Origin: Nymphon striatum
Taxonomy: Eukaryota
DNA length: 64,000 bases
Direction of reading: 5' to 3'
Assembly (NCBI GenBank): GCA_016618385.1
Contig: JABFOP010000225.1
Coordinates: 15,735-79,734 of the forward strand
This document shows positions 12,537 through 64,000 of this stretch, piece by piece; position 1 is the first letter of the stretch, and the number at the start of each line of letters is the position of its first letter. The notes beneath the pieces are model-generated. The model had not been told where the DNA came from, did no database searches, and saw only the letters and a list, made by a program, of their open reading frames with translations. A program made the translations under genes and the position numbers.

Positions 12537-13261
12537 CTTGTTATAGAAAAACTCCAAAATGGGCAGACTTTTTATATATGATGGCTTATAATGAAAAAGG
12601 GCTGCAAAATAGAGTGAAGCATGGCAAAATGAAATTAACTAAATGGGCCGAGTGCAGGAAAGAAATACTATCAATGTGAGTGAAAGTGGCAGTGGCACAG
12701 TGGGTGGAGCTCTCGTTTGTGAAGTACTGGTTTGGTTTCTGGTTCATAGTTATGAATGAAACTTTGAGTGAAAATTTAAAACACAATATTTCAGCTGGAA
12801 CTTTTACATGGGAATGAATGAGCAGTAAGAAAGGTAGAGTAATAACATGGGATGAACAAAGTATATTTATGGAGATGGATGTTAGGAATCAGGATATTAT
12901 ATGAAATGAAGTTTTAAAAAAATAGAGGGAGATAGAGAGCTGATGTGGTAGGTGTGAGTCATAAAATGAGAGAATATTGCCTTTGGAAGTTTGAGGTTTT
13001 GGACAGAAAGGATGTTGGCAATCCAATAAAGAATGTTTAAGATAATCGAAGAGAGTGAAATGGAAAGGAAAGGAAAGCAGAAACTGAGATGCTGAGATAT
13101 CATGAAAAAGATTATGAGTGAAGATGAAATTTGTTAGATAACAGACAATAAAGTCCTATGGCATACACACATGTTCTAAACAATGTACACTGAGGTAAAG
13201 ACAATGGGAAAAGAAGAAATATTTCAAATAAATAAAAAGTAAGAATGACATACATTCTTAT

Positions 13262-13538
13262 GCTGAAGACTGGTACAATTTTCCTGCCATTAGCTAAATT
13301 ATATACATGAATTCTACCATTATAACTTCCACGGAATAACAGACTCGACTTCACATCCCATACGAAAGAAGTAGTAATCTCTGCTAAGCGGTTAATGCTA
13401 TGGACTTGACTGATAGATGTATCCTTTTGCTTTGATATTGTCAAGAGGTAAATGCTATCATAATAACAATATACTATTTCAAAGCCACAAAATTCCAAGA
13501 ACATCGGGAAAGGACAGTTATAATCATTCTGAGAATAG
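13262..13538 (-). CDS. WD40 exon (NDYNCPFPMFLEFCGFEIVYCYYDSIYLLTISKQKDTSISQVHSINRLAEITTSFVWDVKSSLLFRGSYNGRIHVYNLANGRKIVPVFSIR)
   Basis: ORF 13112..13504. Acceptor ttctcag, donor gtatgt. Confidence 0.55.
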
Positions 13539-29818: not shown

Positions 29819-32800
29819 ATTCAGTTTTAGTAGAGAGGCAGAATTGAAAAAGTGGCTTAGTTAAGGATTTAAAAATCATTTTGAGGTAGAGCATGGCATC
29901 CACCCTAGATGGGTTGGCTATGGGATGGGGCATATGCCCAGGTAGGATGACACCTAATATTTTTCCAAAATTTTGGTTTTTTAACCCTTTTCAGTCAAAA
30001 TGCCGGTTTCTCAAAAGTCAATATTTTTAGGGGTAGGGAAAGAAGAATTGGTCATAACAAGTTCAATTTTTATCTTAGAATGGCAATCTGCCATTCAAAT
30101 TCTAGCATTTGATGTCCTCTACAAACTCAAATATGAAATTAAAAAAAATAAAATTATTATAAAGGTATACAGGGTCAAATATCTAGGACTGGCCCTCTAC
30201 CCCCCAAAATACGACCCTTTGTCAAATGAGCCCTATGACTCAATTGTTCTGGTGTAGATGTAGGATTGTTGGGGTATTTTTCGGTAAGGGGACATATTCA
30301 GTCAGTTTTTGAAAAAGGTTTGAACTTGATAGGGCAACTAGACAGGGAGTACTGGGGGTACCAATTTGGACCCTTTTTCGATATTTGGCAAAACTTGGGT
30401 TTTTCACAACGCAACAGTCATGAAGGTAAAAAACTTAGGCCAAGAGCAATAGCTTTAACCTGGACATCGCTCATAACAAGCTGAATTTTTCAGGATAGGT
30501 CCAGGAATATGTGTAGAGTAACATACTAAATGTCTCCATAAATCCCCCTGGAGCTATCACCAAAAATCAAGATGGCGTCCAAAATATCCACCAAGCCTCC
30601 AATTTTGTCATAACTTTGCAACCAGAGAAGCTAAAGTAACAAATAAAGTGTCCAAACACATGTTTTAAGACACAAAGAATCTAATAAAATCATTATTTAG
30701 AGGTTTAAAACGTCCAAAATGGCCGCCAAGTTCCAATTTTGACATAACTTTGCAACCAGAGAAGCTAAAATTACAAATAAAGAGTCCAAACATATGTTTT
30801 AAGGCACAGGGAATCTAATAAAAACCTTATTTAGAGGTTTAAAAGGTTCAAAATGGCCGCCTAGTTCCAACTTTGTCATAACTTTACAACCAGAGAAGCT
30901 AAAGTTACAAATAAAGAGTCCAAACATATGTTTTAAGTCACACGGAATCTAATAAAAACATTATTTAGAGGATTAAAACGTCCAAAATGGCCGCCAAGTT
31001 TCAATTTTGTCATAACTTTGCAACCAGAGAAGCTAAAATTACAAATAAATAGTCCAAACATATGTTTTAAAGCACAAGAAATCTAATAAGCACATTATTT
31101 AAAGGTTAAAAACGTCCAAAATGGCCACCATTTTTATTATTTATTTTTTTATACTTTGTAATCAAACAAGTTATAAATACAAATGAAGTGACTAAACACA
31201 TCTTTTAAGGCAAAGAGAACATATGGTGCAAATATTATCTGTTACGTCAGTATTCATCTTCATTATCTGCTGCAGAATCTTCAACGCTAATGACCACTGA
31301 TGATGGTACAATGTCTTCATCATCGACATCTAATAATTACGGTGTTGTGTTGTTGCAAGTTTGACCACTGCGTTTACTGCACATTGAAGTGCAAAAGAGT
31401 CCAAGTTTATTGCAACTACATGTTATGTTGCTACAACCGTCAGGTTTTCAACTACACGGCACCATGTTGAGCAAAGATTCGGGTGCAACAGGCCTGTCTG
31501 TTTCGACTGGTGCAAGAGTTCCATCATGTGATCGCCATCCCCATTCTATTGGAGGCAAAGTATTACCCATCCATTCTTGAACAGTGTGATAAGTGCGGTA
31601 TGAATGTTTCTTTGCTGCAGCACTAGTTGGAGGAAGACTTGCTAGCTGAAATGATGAACTCGGGGAACAGCGCCCGATTGCCTTTTTGTATGCGATGTGG
31701 CGGTATTTATCAAGTGATTCAAAGTTGCTGGCCCCATAGAGTTTAAGAACAAAGGTTTCCCCGGCTCTTTTCACCTTGTCATGGGTGCTTCCATTTATAC
31801 CAGTCAAATTAGGGCTGGACCTAGAACAAATTGCAATAGAAGGTTTTTTTGGCTTTAACTTGTTCATTAGGTCTCTCTGATGAACATATAAAAAGTCTCC
31901 AATCTAATTTGTCATTCGATTAAAAAGTCGATTGTGAGTCGCCTATTGATCGTAATTGAATTTAGATTGTAGGCAGATTATAGAGCTTGAAGTAAGGAAG
32001 ACAACAATTCTCTAAGACAAGATGGACGTCACAGTCACGTGACTTTCATAGCAACCGCTTGTCTAGGGGCAAAAGAACTTGGTCGCTATGGCTTTGGCCG
32101 TGCTGTAAGTATGGTGATAGAGAACTTTTCCAATTCACTGCTTGTTTTAAATTATTTTAACGAACCGGGTGATTTAAATCAGCCTGAAATCAATTCTGGA
32201 GTATAAACAGGATTTGGATAAGCATTAAAAAGCATGGACTTACAATTCGGTTCTGTTTGATTTGATTAAATCATGTAGTCTGTACAGTGATAGTGTACAT
32301 AAATATCTCGACTCGGACAACCAACAAGCCTTTCGGCATGATTTAAACAAATCAAACATAGTCAAATTGTAAGTCCAGGCTTTTTAATACCTACCCATAT
32401 TCTGTTTATACTCCATAATTGATTCTATGCTGGTTAAAATCATCCAGTAAATCAAAAAAGCATTGGAAAACTTCACAATCACAAGTGCGTCCACAGTTAA
32501 CACGGTCAAGGCCATAGCGACCAAGTTCTTTTGCCCCTAGACAAACGGTTGCTATGCAAGTCACGTGATGAAAGCCCGGATGTTGTCTTACAGAATGTGT
32601 GTCTTGAAATCAAATTCCAAAATTTGGGCAAGTTATAGCCATTCTTATATCATGTACTAAATATAATATTTTCGTTTGAATCTAATTTGTCATTCGATTA
32701 AAAAGTCGATTGTGAGTCGCCTATTGATCGTAATCGAATTTGCATTGTGGGCAAATTATAGAGATTGAAGTAAGGAAGACAACTATGTGCGTCTTGAATC

Positions 32801-34512
32801 GATATTCTAAAATTTTCCAAAAAACCTTCTATTGTAATTTGTTCTAGGCCCAGTTAAATGATTGCTAGATTTACTGGACTATATATATGGAAATCGACTT
32901 GTCGAAACACAATAGGCGCGGTTTCATTGGGTGTCTTTAAATCTGAATAAGTTGCCGATTGTGTTCTAATTGACTCTGTAATTAGAAGCGGGAATGTATT
33001 TCTGGTAAAGTGATTTTATTTCTCACATGTCGCCAATGTTCTACAATTTGTTACGTCATTGTTAATTGTTATTGTTATACATTTTTTTAATGAGGTTTTG
33101 GATACTTATGATTTTTGAAACCTCTAGATAATGATTTTATTAGATTACTTGTGCCTTACAACATATGTTTGAACACTTTGTTTGTAATTTTAGCTTCTCC
33201 GGTTGCAAAGTTATGACAAAATTTGAACTTGGCGGTCATTTTGGACGTTTAAAACTTATAAATGATGATTTTATTAGATTCCCTGTGCCTTAAAATATAT
33301 GTTTAGACACTTTATTTGTAATTTTAGCTTCTCCGGTTGCAAAGTTATGACGAAATTGGAACTTGGCGGCCATTTTAGACGATTTAAACCTCTAAATAAT
33401 GATTTTATTAGATTCCTTGTGCCTTAAAACATATGTTTATACACTTTATTTGTAATATTAGCTCCACCGGTTGCAAAGTTATGACAAAATTGGAACTTGG
33501 CGGCCATTTTGGACGATTTAAACCTCTAAATAATGATTTTATTAGATTCCTTGTGCCTTAAAACATATGTTTAGACACTTTATTTGTAATTTTAGCTCCT
33601 CCGGTTGCAAAGTTATGACAAAATTGGAACTTGGCGGCCATTTTGGACGTTTTAAACCTCTAAATAATGATTTTATTAGATTCCTTGTGCCTTAAAACAT
33701 ATGTTTAGACACTTTATTTGTAATTTTAGCTTATCTGGTTGCAAAGTTATGACAAAATTGGAGGCTTGGTGGATATTTTGGACGCCATCTTGATTTTTGG
33801 TGATAGCTCCAGGGGATTTATGGAGACATTTAGTATGTTGCTCTACACATATTCCTGGACCTATCCTGAAAAATTCAGCTTGTTATGAGCGATGTCCAGG
33901 TTAAAGCTAATGCTCTTGGCCTAAGTGCTTTACCTTTATAACTGTTGCGTTGTGAAAAACCCAATTTTTGCCAAATGTCGAAAAAGGGTCCAAATTGGTA
34001 CCCCCAGTACTCCCTCTCTATTTGCCCTATCAAGTCCAAAACTTTTTCAAAAACTGACTGAATATGTCCCCTTACTGAAAAATACCCATAAAACCCTACA
34101 TCTATACCAGAACAATTGAGTCATAGGGTTCATTTCACAAAGGGTCGTATTTTGGGGGTAGAGGGTCAGTCCTAGATTTTTGACCCTGTATACCCCTACA
34201 ATAATTTTTTTTTTTAATATTTCATATTTGAATATGGAGAGGACATATAATTCTATCATTTGAATGGTATATTGCCATTCTAAGATAAAAATTGAATTTA
34301 TTATGAGCAATTCTTCTTTCCCTACCCCTAAAAATATTGAATTTTGTGAAACCGGCATTTTGATAGAAAAGGGTTAAAAAACCAAAATTTCGGGAAAAAT
34401 ATTAGGTGTCATCCTACCTGGGCATATGCCCCATCCCATAGCCAACCCATCTAGGGTGGATGCCATGCTCTACCTTCCAATGATTTTCAAATCCTGATTT
34501 ATCGATTCTGCC
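29819..34512 (+). mobile_element. Copy 2 of the same long-TIR element; carries a nested MITE at 32010-32595
   Basis: 29825-30540 is the reverse complement of 33830-34510. 120-bp arrays at 30545-31150 and 33110-33780. Internal ORF 31448..31867 is homologous to 7733..8332. Confidence 0.8.
32010..32595. mobile_element. Nested hairpin-forming MITE (about 585 bp, ~75-bp TIRs plus an internal palindrome) inserted into the 180-bp array of element copy 2
   Basis: Absent from the otherwise colinear copy 1: ggaagacaacaat|gtgtgtcttg is contiguous at 8470. Terminal inverted repeats acaagatggacgtcacagtcacgtgactttcatagcaacc... / ...ggttgctatgcaagtcacgtgatgaaagcccggatgttgtcttac. Confidence 0.75.
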
Positions 34513-35284
34513 TCTCTACTAGTTTGTGATTGTCAAGTGATAAGAGTAAAATTATGTTGCATAAATATCATCATCCTGCAACTTTACATAATATAAAATT
34601 ATTTATAATCATACATATATGACTACGCATCCAATTTCTACATGTACACATACGTACACATATAATAAATTCACGTAGACAAACGCACACACACTACAAA
34701 TCAGACATATATATATATTTATAAAGGGAAAGAATATGGAATGCCTACCCTTAAATTATATAATATTAGACTAGTAATTATTACATAAAAGTAGAATATT
34801 TTATTCGAAGAATTAATTCCTGAATATAAAGACCGTTCCAATTACAAATTTGAAATTACAACTGAATGTTTTTTCTGTCGGTTGACCTAATAGTCACACT
34901 TTTAAATTAATTTAAAGTTAATAATTATAATCAAATTTATATATAATTTAAATCAAATACAATTATTTTTAAAGATATTTAATACAGGAAACCCATCACT
35001 TATAATATAAATTATTAGACTTAGAAATTTTTCATACACAAATTTCAAATTCAAAATTGAAAAAAAATTCAAATTTCAACAGCCAAAATAGTCTATCAGA
35101 CGACCTGATACAATTATGGTTAATAAATAGGTGAATTCGATCCTAATGTGAAATGAAACTAATTTTAAATATTTATTATGGATATATTAAACTCAAGATA
35201 AATGATTTAGTAATTATAATCGTTTGTTTTGTTAGTAAACAAGTCAGAGATACTTAGCCATCATGTAAGAGATGTGCACTAGTC

Positions 35285-38686: not shown

Positions 38687-39166
38687 CTGAAAAAAAAATA
38701 AATTGGAAAAAAGAAAAAAAAATAAAGAATAAAAATAAATATATACATTAAATCAGGCTTTTAATTGCAAATTTTACAAACAGCAATACTATTATTGTTA
38801 AAACTGTGGTTTCAAAGTAGGTAACAGAAAAAGAAAATAAAAAAATCATCTCTACGTCAAATAAATGATGACTAGCAGGTAGCAAAATATTAATTTCCCC
38901 CAGAACCTCTAAGAGGCAAGTAGATTTGGCTTTATATCAGATGTCAGACAAATAGTTGTTAAGTATTGATCATAAATTTTATAATGCAGTGTTTCATCTA
39001 CACTTGCGTCCTGCATCATATAATGCATAAATTATCAAAAGGCACATCAAATGTTTGTATTTATGCTAATAATTTTATCCTATTACAGGGGCGGATCTAG
39101 GGGGGGGGGTGGATTGGGTGGCTAGCCACCCCCCCTTGCAACCCAAACATATTTTGTTCATAGTAT

Positions 39167-39562
39167 TTGATAAAATTCTTACTGACAAATGGGAATCCGA
39201 TCTCCCGTCATTATTCAATGAACTTCTTAGATTTGAGCAACAACCCCAAAAAGGTTTCTTCATCTTCATCAGTTACATATTTGATTCAGCATCATGCAGA
39301 CACTACATTTTTCCCAAATATCAGGGAGTTGCTGAGCATTCTTGCTGTATTGCCAATTGGAAGTTGTGAAGCCGAAAGGTCCTTTTCTTGTGTGCGGCGT
39401 ATTCACTCATGGCTTCGGTCATCTATGTCCACAGATAGATTATCAGACCTTTGTGTGATTGCCATGCATGGTAATATCCCTGTTTCCACTAAGGAAATTG
39501 TCAACCGCTTCATTACATTACATCCACGTCGAATGCAGGGACAAAGTCTTTTCTCGTTGTAG
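39167..39562 (+). mobile_element. hAT transposase C-terminal dimerisation-domain fragment (…LAVLPIGSCEAERSFSCVRRIHSWLRSSMSTDRLSDLCVIAMH…)
   Basis: ORF 39167..39562. Classic hATC motif SxxxERxFSxxxxIxTxxRxxLxxxxLxxL. Confidence 0.7.
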
Positions 39563-39829
39563 TAGGCCTACTTTTGTCAAACTGCAACATCATGCTTTTT
39601 GTGACTACTAGTCTACCATTAATTTTGAACTTAAGGATTTAGACGTAACAGTATACTTGAAGTAATGAATTATACTTATAGCAATGGTATATTTTGTGTG
39701 TTATTTTTTAAATATTATTATTATGTTTTTTATTGTAATCTACAAAATCGAAATGGTTTATCTTTAATTTTGAGAAAAATTTAGAAACCAAAATATGATC
39801 TGTTTCACAAAAACGCATGCCGATATAGG

Positions 39830-41235
39830 CCAAGAGCATTAGACGAAATAAGGCCAAACCTGGACATCGCTCATAACAAGCTGAATTTTTCAGGATAGGT
39901 CCAGGAATATGTGTAGAGTAACATACTAAAAGTCCCCATAAATCCCCCTGGAGCTCACTCCAAAAATCAAGATGGCGTCCAAAATACCCGCCAAGCCTCC
40001 AATTTTGTCATAACTTTGCAACCAGATAAGCTAAAATTACAAATAAAGTGTCTAAACATATGTTTTAAGGCACAAGGAATCTAATAAAATCATTATTTAG
40101 AGGTTTAAAACGTCAAAAATGGCCGCCAAGTTCAAATTTTGTCATAACTTTGCAACCGGAGAAGTTAAAATTACAAATAAAGTGTCCAAACATATGCTGT
40201 AAGGCACAAGTAATCTAATAAAATCATTATCTAGAGACATATAAGACAAATAAAGACATATAGCAAACCCGCTGTTCCCGGTTTACAGTCTGTTGTAATA
40301 TATCCTCTCAAGAATCATGATCAAGGGCTCCAGTCTCTCCGCTCAGCAGCTGCACTAGACGCCCTCTTGGTTTTTGGCTGTGTTCTGGAACTATCCCCTT
40401 GTCCTTCATGGAGTGGATTCATGAAAGTAGCCATACAAAGTGACCTATATGAGACAACCAGAATAGAAACTTTGCCCTTTATTAATCTGGACCCCTCCAA
40501 TCCGAGTACTATTTATACAGCATTATGCTTTGCACAAACACAGTGTGAAAAGCATGGTTTGAGAATATGTCCAGTCACATTTGATGAGCCGTTATATATT
40601 AAGGCTGCAGAGATTGTAGCTGCTTCACAAGATCTGGACATAGTGATCATCCGTCTTGTCGGATTTCACCTCTTCATGTCTTATCTTGGAAACATAGGTC
40701 ACATAATGACAGGAAGTGGGCTAGCAGAGCTTTGGGAGACGGTATACGCCAAAGGATCCGTCATACATATGCTATCTGGCCATGCCTTTTCTCGTGCTCT
40801 TCGTGCTCACATTCTTACTTCAGCTGCCCTCATTGGTGTCTTGATGGGTACACCTGGCGCCTTAGAGAAATTAGACAAAGAACACTTAGAGAACCTTTAC
40901 AGAGCCCTTCTTAACCAGGACAAGAACGCCACTGACATAGCCGAGGAGGAATGCGTCAAACAGTTAAGCCAGATCATTTCATAACTCCTTGACCAGGCTG
41001 CAAGTCAGAGCAGAGCAGAGTCAGAGCAAGTCTTCTCTGGTTGCAAAGTTATGACAAAATTGGAGGCTTGGTGGATATTTTGGACGCCATCTTGAATTTT
41101 GGAGAGAGCTCCTGGGGGATTTATGGGGACTTTTGTTATGTTACTCTACACATATTCCTGGACCTATCCTGAAAAATTCAGCTTGTTATGAGCAATGTCC
41201 AGGTTAAAGCTAATGCTATTGGCCTAATAGGTGAA
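39830..41235 (+). mobile_element. Third, rearranged derivative of the long-TIR element. Inner-TIR plus 120-bp-repeat fragments (39830-40250 plus; 41030-41230 minus) flank a 205-aa ORF.
   Basis: Sequence identity to 6700-7100 and 10130-10330. Confidence 0.6.
40367..40984 (+). CDS. ORF of unknown function carried between the TIR-derived fragments (…ICPVTFDEPLYIKAAEIV…GSGLAELWETVYAKGSVIHMLSGHAFSRALRAHIL…). Candidate transposase or passenger fragment.
   Basis: 205-aa uninterrupted ORF in an otherwise non-coding intron. No motif I can assign confidently. Confidence 0.3.
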   Translation: MVFGCVLELSPCPSWSGFMKVAIQSDLYETTRIETLPFINLDPSNPSTIYTALCFAQTQCEKHGLRICPVTFDEPLYIKAAEIVAASQDLDIVIIRLVGFHLFMSYLGNIGHIMTGSGLAELWETVYAKGSVIHMLSGHAFSRALRAHILTSAALIGVLMGTPGALEKLDKEHLENLYRALLNQDKNATDIAEEECVKQLSQIIS

Positions 41236-41494
41236 GGAAAATTCCTATCCTAGCCACCCCCCTTTCAAAATTCCTAGATCTGCCTCTGTATTATCTATAC
41301 TTCCATTAGGAGGCAACCAAAAAATTACCAAATTACGTTGAATCGCATAATGATCAACAATTTACATTTAACGAAGTTAAGCTACATTGAAAAATCTGTG
41401 CTGATTGGCTGAGTCTAATTATGTCCCTTCTTTTTAGCAAATCGTCTTGCATAGTGTTATGCAGGTGCTCCATTTCATCAGGACCGTCCACTCT

Positions 41495-62397: not shown

Positions 62398-64000
62398 GTG
62401 AACATACTGTTTTCAGAAACAGCACCAGAAGTGCACGAGGAGTTTGCAGCTGGCAAATTCACAGTTCACCAGACTGCAAGAGACTTCAATGGTGTGTGGA
62501 CAGACCTTGCCCTTGAACAGACCTACAATAGGGAAGGTAAAACAAGTATCTTTAAGGGTATAACGCAGTTGGAGTCAGCACGAGAAAAGTATATTAAGGC
62601 TCTACCGTTTATGACCTCCGTCTCTGAAAGTGTAAAACAGATGGCACACATGACCTCGTCGCAATCTGACCACCACGAGAAACTAAGGAAAGACGACATG
62701 GAAGCTGTGTTGCAGATCAAACGGACCGTGGAAGAGAAGATGCAAAACCCATTCCATCCTTCACTTGCGACAGATAAACTAATGAATATATCCACAGGTC
62801 AGATTCTTGCAGCAACTACCCTGGTAGATGCCAAACGTCTAGACTTGAAGGCAATGGATGCTGCCACTACGACGAATGCAGACAAGATTGTCTAACCGAA
62901 AATGGAAACATTCGCCACACATCTGATGAAAATTCAGAAAAAGATCGACACTGTGAAAGAAGTCATCAGAGAGGAGAGTGCAGTGACAAGGGCACTTTGT
63001 TTCGCACAGAATCTGAGTGATGAGGCACGGACTGAGGGATTTAGTTACGAATGGCTTGAGTACCCTCCGTCGTTGTTTGAGCCAGAGAAAAATGGATATT
63101 CTATGCGGAAAGGTTGCAAATCCACTTATCTATCCACTCTACAGGCAGAAGTTGCCAACTCATGGGAACCGTTAAAAGAGTTGCCTCCTTCAGCAGCTGA
63201 TGCAGTTTATGTAGTCGATGCAAAGGCATTCATCCAGCGGCTCAACGCACTTGGTTCGAGTGCATTTGGCCAACTTCAGGAAAGGTACAGGGAGAAACTC
63301 TTGAATATGAAACCCAGACATTGCACTGGAGTGCATTTCGTGGACGATCAATAAGATTTTGGGTTAAAGAGTCTAAAGGGGGATGAACGCCAGAGACGGG
63401 AGTCAAATATCAACTTGCCAGAGTATGTTCCAGCGGACAGCATGAAAATCCCTTATTGGAAGACATTGCTATTTAACCCTTGTAACAAGACCAATATGCT
63501 GTCTTATCTTGCTTCACGTTGGTCTCAGGAGGCATCCTGGCCTGCTGGCTTCTGCCTGGTCCTTGGGGTGAACGCCCAGGCAACTCGTGTGACGCAGACA
63601 GAACATACCGATGTTGATGAGCTGTATTGCCCTAACCACGAGGAGGCGGACACCAGAATCTTTGCTCACATTGCTAGTTGTGACGACAACAACGTATTTT
63701 TCATTCAGGCTACAGATACAGATATCATCGTCTTGGCAATGTATCATTTCCCTCGATTGTCAAACGTTGTTGAGTTATGGGTGGAGAAGAATGATCTGTT
63801 CCTCTTCATCCATGATTTAGTGAATGAGTCGGCCAAAGCAGTTGGAAAGGACGTGTTAGCACTCACAGACACACTGCTCATCTCATACATTCTGTCCGGT
63901 TGTGATTCGGTGAGCTTTCCTTTCAAACGAGGTAAGAAGAGAACAGTGAAAGTCGCACTCGAGCATGTTGATAAACACCCAGCTTTGTCCAATTGCATCC
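62398..64000 (+). CDS. Long ORF (runs off the window) encoding a 5'-3' exonuclease/FEN-like PIN nuclease domain. Two in-frame TAA codons (62893, 63352) suggest a pseudogene or decaying transposon ORF.
   Basis: Motifs AVYVVDAKAFIQRLNALG (compare vLLVDGssLlyRa), NHEEADTRIFAHIA (compare GYEADDvIatLA) and FIQATDTDIIVLAMY (compare vvTgDKDllQLv) in the canonical order and spacing of the 53EXO/XPG-N/I fold. The same frame continues across both stops. Confidence 0.55.

Follow-up and report, generated by a model that had tools for sequence, protein, structure and literature searches.

A 64,000-nucleotide stretch of Nymphon striatum DNA (GenBank assembly GCA_016618385.1, contig JABFOP010000225.1, positions 15,735 to 79,734 of the forward strand; hereafter the window) holds at positions 39826-41226 a 1,401-bp transposon copy related to the AcademX group of the Academ superfamily. 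The copy is very probably a non-autonomous, cut-and-paste AcademX element that has undergone two internal deletions and has kept a middle piece of its own transposase gene. Its features are collected in Table 1. The two inverted arms are ~95% complementary over their whole length and contain a core pair of 174 nt each (39857-40030 and 41032-41205, 95% complementary), which a 17-nt terminal pair (39826-39842 and 41210-41226) lengthens out to TAGGCCAAGAGCATTAG. This arm-to-arm match is not a product of chance (blastn E 7e-75). The inverted repeat stops exactly at 39826 and 41226, flush with ATA duplications, and the outer termini read as a pair TAGGCCAAGAGCATTAG ... CTAATGCTCTTGGCCTA. Two large related copies in the window have a long terminal inverted repeat (TIR), whose inner part (6720-7121 and its mirror images) matches the arms at 93-96% identity; the 134-bp tandem units next to the left arm are 86-95% identical to those of the large copies. 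Base composition across the window is AT-rich and animal-type (27-45% G+C). A preliminary description of this DNA had placed the locus at 39830-41235 and had seen inverted fragments of an inner TIR and of a 120-bp repeat around an open reading frame (ORF). The locus and its inverted flanks are real; the ends are shifted to 39826-41226, and Tandem Repeats Finder (TRF) gives a repeat period of 134 bp.

The ORF itself (40367-40984; 618 nt, 205 amino acids) is present as described, although its TTG start is merely mechanical. The frame is open from 40241 to 40984 (248 codons), and the unique segment around it (40245-41031, ~0.79 kb) has no second copy anywhere in the window, in agreement with the earlier remark that the ORF is missing from the two large copies. 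Homologues of the ORF (n = 85, best E 4e-89) come from many animals, are all pieces of larger proteins and bring no Pfam domain; for the 205-residue ORF, Pfam returned a noise match alone (TPPII_C, E 0.2). When longer homologues were used in tblastn, homology covered 40253-41017, from the repeat junction through the in-frame TAA. This TAA (40982-40984) occupies the position of a Gln in relatives (...SQIIS*LLDQAASQSR versus ...SQIISQVLDQAA.ESRTGKLW). Because homology continues through the stop codon and is cut at both ends, the unique insert is an internal piece of a larger frame. It amounts to 255 codons, ~18% of the transposase gene, and lacks the native start. Retained are the end of a beta2-beta3 insertion, beta3-alpha1-beta4 with the second catalytic Asp (D2, VTFDEPLY), beta5 and about half of a helical insertion domain; lost are D1 (FVFDNADFN), the catalytic Glu (DQTIEQ), an XPG-type nuclease and a finger. 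With only the second Asp of the DDE triad left, the fragment cannot be a transposase, and on its sequence the 205-residue ORF almost certainly lacks transposase activity. What had been called a clean ORF is an internal fragment without the first D or the catalytic E, ending at a nonsense mutation.

The parent protein was identified with published Academ transposase domains (Kojima 2020 Data S3, PMC7165386). In BLASTP against the window frame, Academ-1_AP, Academ-3_SP and Academ-2_HM each gave E 2e-38 and Academ-1_CGi gave E 1e-33; five Academ queries, including Academ-1_Ami, matched the translation of 40241-41041 with E values from 2e-38 to 8e-20. The same queries also match gene parts of L001, one of five contigs (L001-L005) that carry related loci. 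The protein is thus not an unknown one, contrary to what had been supposed. The L001 gene is nearly full-length (~4.2 kb, ~1,400 amino acids, interrupted by a few frameshifts). Its C-terminal 735 amino acids, used as a query, recovered uninterrupted relatives of 1,100-1,270 amino acids from arthropods, annelids and molluscs, some of which are named 'Tesmin/TSO1-like CXC domain-containing' in UniRef.

In full-length relatives a DDE domain is joined by a nuclease like EXO1/FEN1/XPG and by a tail rich in Cys. The family protein P0087 has its triad at D94/D260/E503; its D1-D2 distance of 166 amino acids lies inside the published AcademX range of 138-192, and GGFH at 285-288 corresponds to the G/A/E/QxxH reported after D2 (PMC7165386). 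P0087 was modelled with AlphaFold2 from an alignment of 88 rows (mean predicted local distance difference test 89, predicted template modelling score 0.80). In the model D94 falls on a strand, D260 comes immediately behind one and E503 sits in a helix past an all-helical insertion, a predicted RNase-H-like DDE layout. A 19-sequence family profile matches human Exonuclease 1 (E 4.7e-5) over ~200 residues including the acidic motifs, so that an XPG-type nuclease lies in the same polypeptide as the transposase. The family profile was needed for this match, as a single-sequence phmmer search of the 735-residue C-terminal part against the PDB found none. Pfam matches on full-length relatives were weak only (5_3_exonuc_N, E 0.023; DUF6589 in 2 of the 19 members). 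The Cys-rich finger, a putative Cys8, begins at residue 1065 of P0087 (CGCKPDGCRNMTCSCKKLGLFCTSMCNKCSGQTC), and tblastn of P0087 through its last residue, 1126, reaches the Cys-rich region in the large copies of the window, where it is interrupted. Transposase homology, DDE spacing and motif, nuclease, Cys8 finger, target-site duplications (TSDs) and termini are all those of the Academ superfamily and of AcademX. AcademH has a separate superfamily II helicase gene and TSDs of 9-10 bp; here the TSDs are 3 bp, the protein contains an XPG nuclease, and no helicase Pfam match is on record for the called genes inside the L003-L005 elements.

Public annotations attach host-gene labels to several transposase homologues: Carcinine transporter in N. 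striatum, and Glycerophosphodiester phosphodiesterase, Fat-like cadherin and CaM kinase-like protein in Frankliniella fusca. A further homologue occurs in a bacterial metagenome-assembled genome (MAG; Sedimenticola sp.). These entries (P0103, P0109, P0118, P0158, P0160 and P0170) are probably chimeric gene models and, for the MAG, a misbinned eukaryotic contig.

Related loci establish that gene and TIRs belong together. L003, L004 and L005 each hold a complete element of ~7-8 kb with the gene between both TIRs, which is the arrangement in longer copies that the preliminary description had proposed to look for. In L001, homologues of the 134-bp repeat and of the TIR stand 3′ of the gene; no left arm appeared in the inverted-repeat search, and the 5′ side of this locus is therefore truncated. 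In L002 a TIR homologue stands ahead of a gene fragment. Of the two origins first considered for the ORF, the coding region of the autonomous partner is accordingly the right one, with the gene between homologous TIRs in three loci and adjoining a TIR in the other two. The ends of the L003-L005 elements all open TAG(G/T)CCA(A/G)GAGCATTAG, with a perfect 3-bp duplication on either side of each element; the window copy shares these termini (5′-TAG...CTA-3′) and has its own duplication, ATA. An alternative reading of the ends as Tc1/mariner-like, with a TA target duplication and termini GGCC.../GTAG..., was rejected, as it leaves ATA, TTT, GTTT, GAT, TAT and TAA at six elements unexplained.

The arms are not interchangeable. 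An alignment of eleven ends has conserved blocks at the terminal motif, AACAAGCTGATTTTTTCAGGATAGGTCCAGGAATATGT, AAAAGTCCCC and CAAGATGGCGTCCAAAATGGCCGCCA, and an additional 11-12 bp is present in gene-upstream ends (L002-L005) and absent from gene-downstream ends (L001, L003, L004 and L005). The window copy has a 5′-type arm on the left and a 3′-type arm on the right, and the fragment between them is in sense; this is the native polarity. Such an arrangement is expected of an internal-deletion derivative, not of a captured or randomly inserted fragment. Relative to L003 and L004, the arms are 70-75% identical and the gene fragment 79-81% identical, and this comparable divergence is predicted by a single parent. 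Through the additional 11-12 bp the terminal motif also recurs in degenerate form ~25 bp inward of the end (TAGGCCAAG ... AAGGCCAAA / TAGCCCAAA / TAGGCTTAA), and this recurrence may be a further binding site that only the 5′ end possesses. The repeat block CAAGATGGCGTCCAAAAT..CC.CCA is conserved in L002-L004. Block CAAGATGGCGTCCAAAATGGCCGCCA, found at 39940-39975, in every 134-bp unit and in the L002-L004 arms, is the best-conserved subterminal part of loci that are otherwise ~70-75% identical, and is a candidate binding site for the transposase or a host factor. We take it to resemble a YY1-type AAGATGGCGGC motif.

Compared with L004, the window copy has lost ~3.2 kb on the 5′ side (the subterminal region and the N-terminal part of the gene) and ~2.8 kb on the 3′ side (the remaining gene and the inner repeats), while 0.76 kb of the middle of the gene is kept between the two deletions. 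Both deletion junctions hold short templated filler that imperfectly repeats adjacent sequence. Such filler is classically ascribed to abortive, template-switching gap repair, as in Ac/Ds and P elements. Because templated filler stands at both junctions, gap repair of this kind after excision is the most likely source of the two internal deletions. With its termini and TSD intact, the derivative would be mobilisable in trans; if mobile, it would be moved by a full-length AcademX transposase recognising the TAGGCCAAGAGCATTAG termini and the subterminal repeats. That the ORF is still open would be due to a deletion young relative to neutral decay.

Several points weigh against this account. No intact autonomous copy lies in the 64-kb window, and mobilisation in trans in this genome is something that we infer. 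The complete relatives, from European Nucleotide Archive (ENA) assemblies, are only 70-81% identical at the nucleotide level; they show the architecture of the family, not the direct parent. The single line of evidence for a gap-repair origin is the junction filler, from which that origin would have to be read. The open frame is also long, at 248 codons, and leaves the truncated product some slight chance of a function.

If the truncated ORF were retained for a function, such as that of a dominant-negative or regulatory fragment like the KP repressor of P elements, this would account for the length of that frame, for the 43 of 47 well-conserved columns that the fragment keeps and for a ratio of nonsynonymous to synonymous substitution (dN/dS) of 0.16 against the intact L003 segment (dS 0.81). 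However, divergence between active parental lineages would itself give a low dN/dS, and a value of 0.16 means that most of the divergence arose in functional lineages and that the relic is young enough to have stayed open. Taken with the 43 of 47 columns, it indicates that a functional gene was a recent ancestor. The native start and the N-terminal region, where DNA binding would most plausibly reside, are absent, the frame stops at a nonsense codon in a Gln position, and only a single copy was seen. The real changes in the conserved columns are W188L, Q261E and G285V; Q261E adjoins the catalytic Asp, and G285V hits the GxxH motif (GGFH to VGFH). A functional product is thus very improbable. 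The ORF is a decaying relic, the outcome of ordinary transposon decay and no new gene.

Two other histories would separate the fragment from its arms. Capture of a host-gene fragment inside a TIR element, by transduplication of the Pack-MULE kind, might be suggested by the lack of the segment in the two large copies, by the absence of a Pfam family and by the host-gene names of several database homologues. Those names belong to chimeric or misannotated models, and the segment matches published Academ transposases at E ~1e-38. In L003-L005 homologous TIRs enclose the same gene, another part of it is present in the large copies, and in the window copy it has its native orientation between a 5′-type and a 3′-type arm. 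The capture option raised in the preliminary description is contradicted: the internal segment comes from no host gene but from the transposase gene of the element itself, and it keeps the native polarity. Capture is the least probable of all the histories considered, with almost no chance of being correct. Alternatively, an unrelated Academ fragment could have inserted into, or recombined with, a miniature inverted-repeat transposable element made of TIRs only, with no common parent. Both junctions are indeed abrupt and contain filler, and the surroundings are rich in nested transposable elements (the hAT host described below). Yet there are no second termini or TSD around the fragment, arm polarity agrees with gene orientation, and arms (70-75%) and gene (79-81%) are comparably diverged from L003 and L004. 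Such a chimera is very unlikely, and a doubly deleted AcademX copy accounts for the locus far better.

The two large copies, which had been taken for full elements, are themselves deleted and non-autonomous. They lack the ORF segment, as had been noted, yet they are not free of the gene: each keeps just its C-terminal 181-207 amino acids, antisense, beside the left arm and collinear with the 3′ end of L001. Their inverted arms reach ~1.3 kb, with 607 bp added outside the canonical terminus. In copy 1 the outer 607-bp arms occupy 6114-6720 and 10333-10930, and inward of them follow the inner TIR and four 134-bp repeats. On both sides the inner arm belongs to the 3′ type; the long-form termini TAGTAGAGAGGCAG resemble the canonical TAGGCCAAGAGCAT. 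Because the long form adds the 607-bp outer arm, has 3′-type arms on both sides and keeps another piece of the gene, the 1,401-bp derivative is nearer to the canonical architecture than the two long-form copies are. Its description as a derivative of the long-TIR element therefore does not hold; in termini, 3-bp TSD and arm polarity the copy agrees with the canonical element. Neither the outer 607-bp arm nor a set of 190-bp repeats has a match in L001-L005. These 190-bp tandem repeats (3.9 units) occur in the long form at 8366-9109 and also at 32594-32816.

As judged from its arms, the long form looks like a foldback-type duplication of the 3′ end with newly gained ends. Nesting of a canonical element in a palindromic host is unsupported, as the inner termini are flanked by ACT and AGT, with no TSD. 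The window holds two architectures of a single AcademX family, the canonical short-ended one, to which the derivative belongs, and the long form. A reading in which the long form would be a foldback-generated element with new functional ends and, separately, the truncated ORF would be regulatory is unlikely. A second, distant Academ-like coding remnant, interrupted by stops, lies on the forward strand in the GC-richer right end of the window (62398-63972), with 21-24% identity near the third catalytic motif (DLALEQ) and in the nuclease domain of the family protein.

The AcademX derivative appears to have landed inside a hAT-like non-autonomous element (39086-41288 in total), which encloses it. 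This host has 16-bp TIRs (CAGGGGCGGATCTAGG, 14 of 16 positions complementary), a 5-bp TATTA at both ends and a remnant of a hAT C-terminal dimerisation domain at 39167-39562 (Pfam Dimer_Tnp_hAT, E 7.4e-5; score 22.9 bits, cut-off 21.4). Its dimerisation domain, its short TIRs and its TSD are those of hAT elements, the domain being a remnant and not a full transposase. Published hAT TSDs may be 5, 6 or 8 bp long (Kojima 2020, PMC7165386). Before the insertion, the site inside the hAT element would have read ...CCGATAGGTG... Both arms of the host also carry a G-rich subterminal GGGGGTGGCTAG block.

Table 1. Features of the AcademX derivative, its hAT-like host and related elements. Positions refer to the window unless a contig is named.
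Feature	Position	Strand	Evidence or remarks
Left TSD, ATA	39823-39825		Read from sequence; identical to 41227-41229
5′ TIR, opens TAGGCCAAGAGCATTAG	39826-40030	+	5′ type, with additional 11-12 bp past terminal motif; homologous to gene-upstream TIRs of L002-L005, which have the same additional segment
Subterminal 134-bp tandem repeat, 1.9 units	39976-40236	+	TRF; conserved block CAAGATGGCGTCCAAAAT..CC.CCA
Left deletion junction	40237-40252	+	Short filler repeating adjacent AAGACATATA; compared with repeat unit and gene in L003, L004
Internal AcademX transposase gene fragment (P0087 residues 150-403)	40253-41011	+	tblastn, BLASTP to Academ domains, L003/L004 identity, dN/dS
Right deletion junction	41012-41031	+	Filler GCAGAGTCAGAGCAAGT imperfectly repeats preceding CAAGTCAGAGCAGAG; junction comparison
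3′ TIR, terminates ...CTAATGCTATTGGCCTA	41032-41226	-	3′ type, without additional 11-12 bp; arm comparison
Right TSD, ATA	41227-41229		Sequence, inverted-repeat ends
hAT-like non-autonomous host, left part, TIR CAGGGGCGGATCTAGG	39086-39825	+	Inverted repeats; TSD TATTA 39081-39085
hAT-like host, right part, TIR ...CCTAGATCTGCCTCTG	41230-41288	+	Inverted repeats; TSD TATTA 41289-41293
Long-form non-autonomous relative, copy 1	6114-10930	-	TSD TTT
Transposase C-terminal fragment, copy 1	7538-8149	-	tblastn
Long-form non-autonomous relative, copy 2	29828-34521	-	TSD GTTT
Transposase C-terminal fragment, copy 2	31253-31870	-	tblastn
5′ TIR with degenerate second motif	39826-39870
5′ TIR with degenerate second motif	L003 7105-7150
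5′ TIR with degenerate second motif	L004 6113-6160
Complete element L003	L003 7105-14955		TSD GAT; gene between both TIRs
Complete element L004	L004 ~6113-13419		TSD TAT; gene between both TIRs
Complete element L005	L005 ~181-7061		TSD TAA; gene between both TIRs

The closest known systems are AcademX transposons (for example Academ-1_AP of the pea aphid, Academ-2_HM of Hydra, Academ-3_SP of the sea urchin and Academ-1_CGi of the oyster; Kojima 2020, Mob DNA 11:15, PMC7165386). The transposase domain is 35-44% identical to theirs (E 1e-33 to 2e-38), and the gene product is likewise a single large protein in which DDE domain, XPG-type nuclease and Cys-rich finger are combined. TSDs of 3 bp and termini of the form 5′-T...A-3′ agree with the published TSDs of 3 bp (animal) or 4 bp and with a pyrimidine 5′ end and a purine 3′ end (PMC7165386). 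At 35-44% identity the present family is nonetheless distinct from these entries. Its TIRs measure ~200-440 bp and are accompanied by subterminal tandem repeats of 134-184 bp, ~18% of the gene is left in the window copy, a non-autonomous deletion derivative, and the long-form arms of ~1.3 kb exceed the TIRs of 526-575 bp given in PMC7165386. One long-form copy has a 4-bp flank match (GTTT), whereas PMC7165386 reports 4-bp TSDs from a red alga only.

In its history the derivative is reminiscent of Ds elements derived from Ac and of deleted P elements, which likewise have intact termini, a deleted coding part and junction filler and need transposase in trans. It differs from them in superfamily, in having a central island of the gene between two separate deletions and in a mechanism deduced from the junctions. 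No sequence-level relationship of the protein to the P-element and hAT (Hermes) transposases was found (no Pfam match, Foldseek weak); unlike these, the protein has a ~100-residue beta2-beta3 insertion and a fused XPG-type nuclease, and its TSDs are 3 bp rather than 8 bp.

According to its main review, the Academ superfamily is among the least characterised superfamilies of eukaryotic DNA transposons (PMC7165386). The long-TIR repeats of the window can now be assigned to it. For a well-defined AcademX family, the locus and its relatives give the termini, the 3-bp TSDs, the difference between 5′ and 3′ arms and the subterminal blocks that are conserved, together with a structural model of high confidence. 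If the foldback origin of the long form is true, it would be an example of the birth of long-TIR non-autonomous transposons. The derivative is a new family member of an already known transposon type, and its chief value lies in annotating a poorly covered superfamily. Pfam matches to the tested transposase sequences are weak or absent, and the family is useful for repeat annotation; it also helps to recognise misannotated 'host' proteins, and a bacterial MAG contig, as carriers of the transposase.
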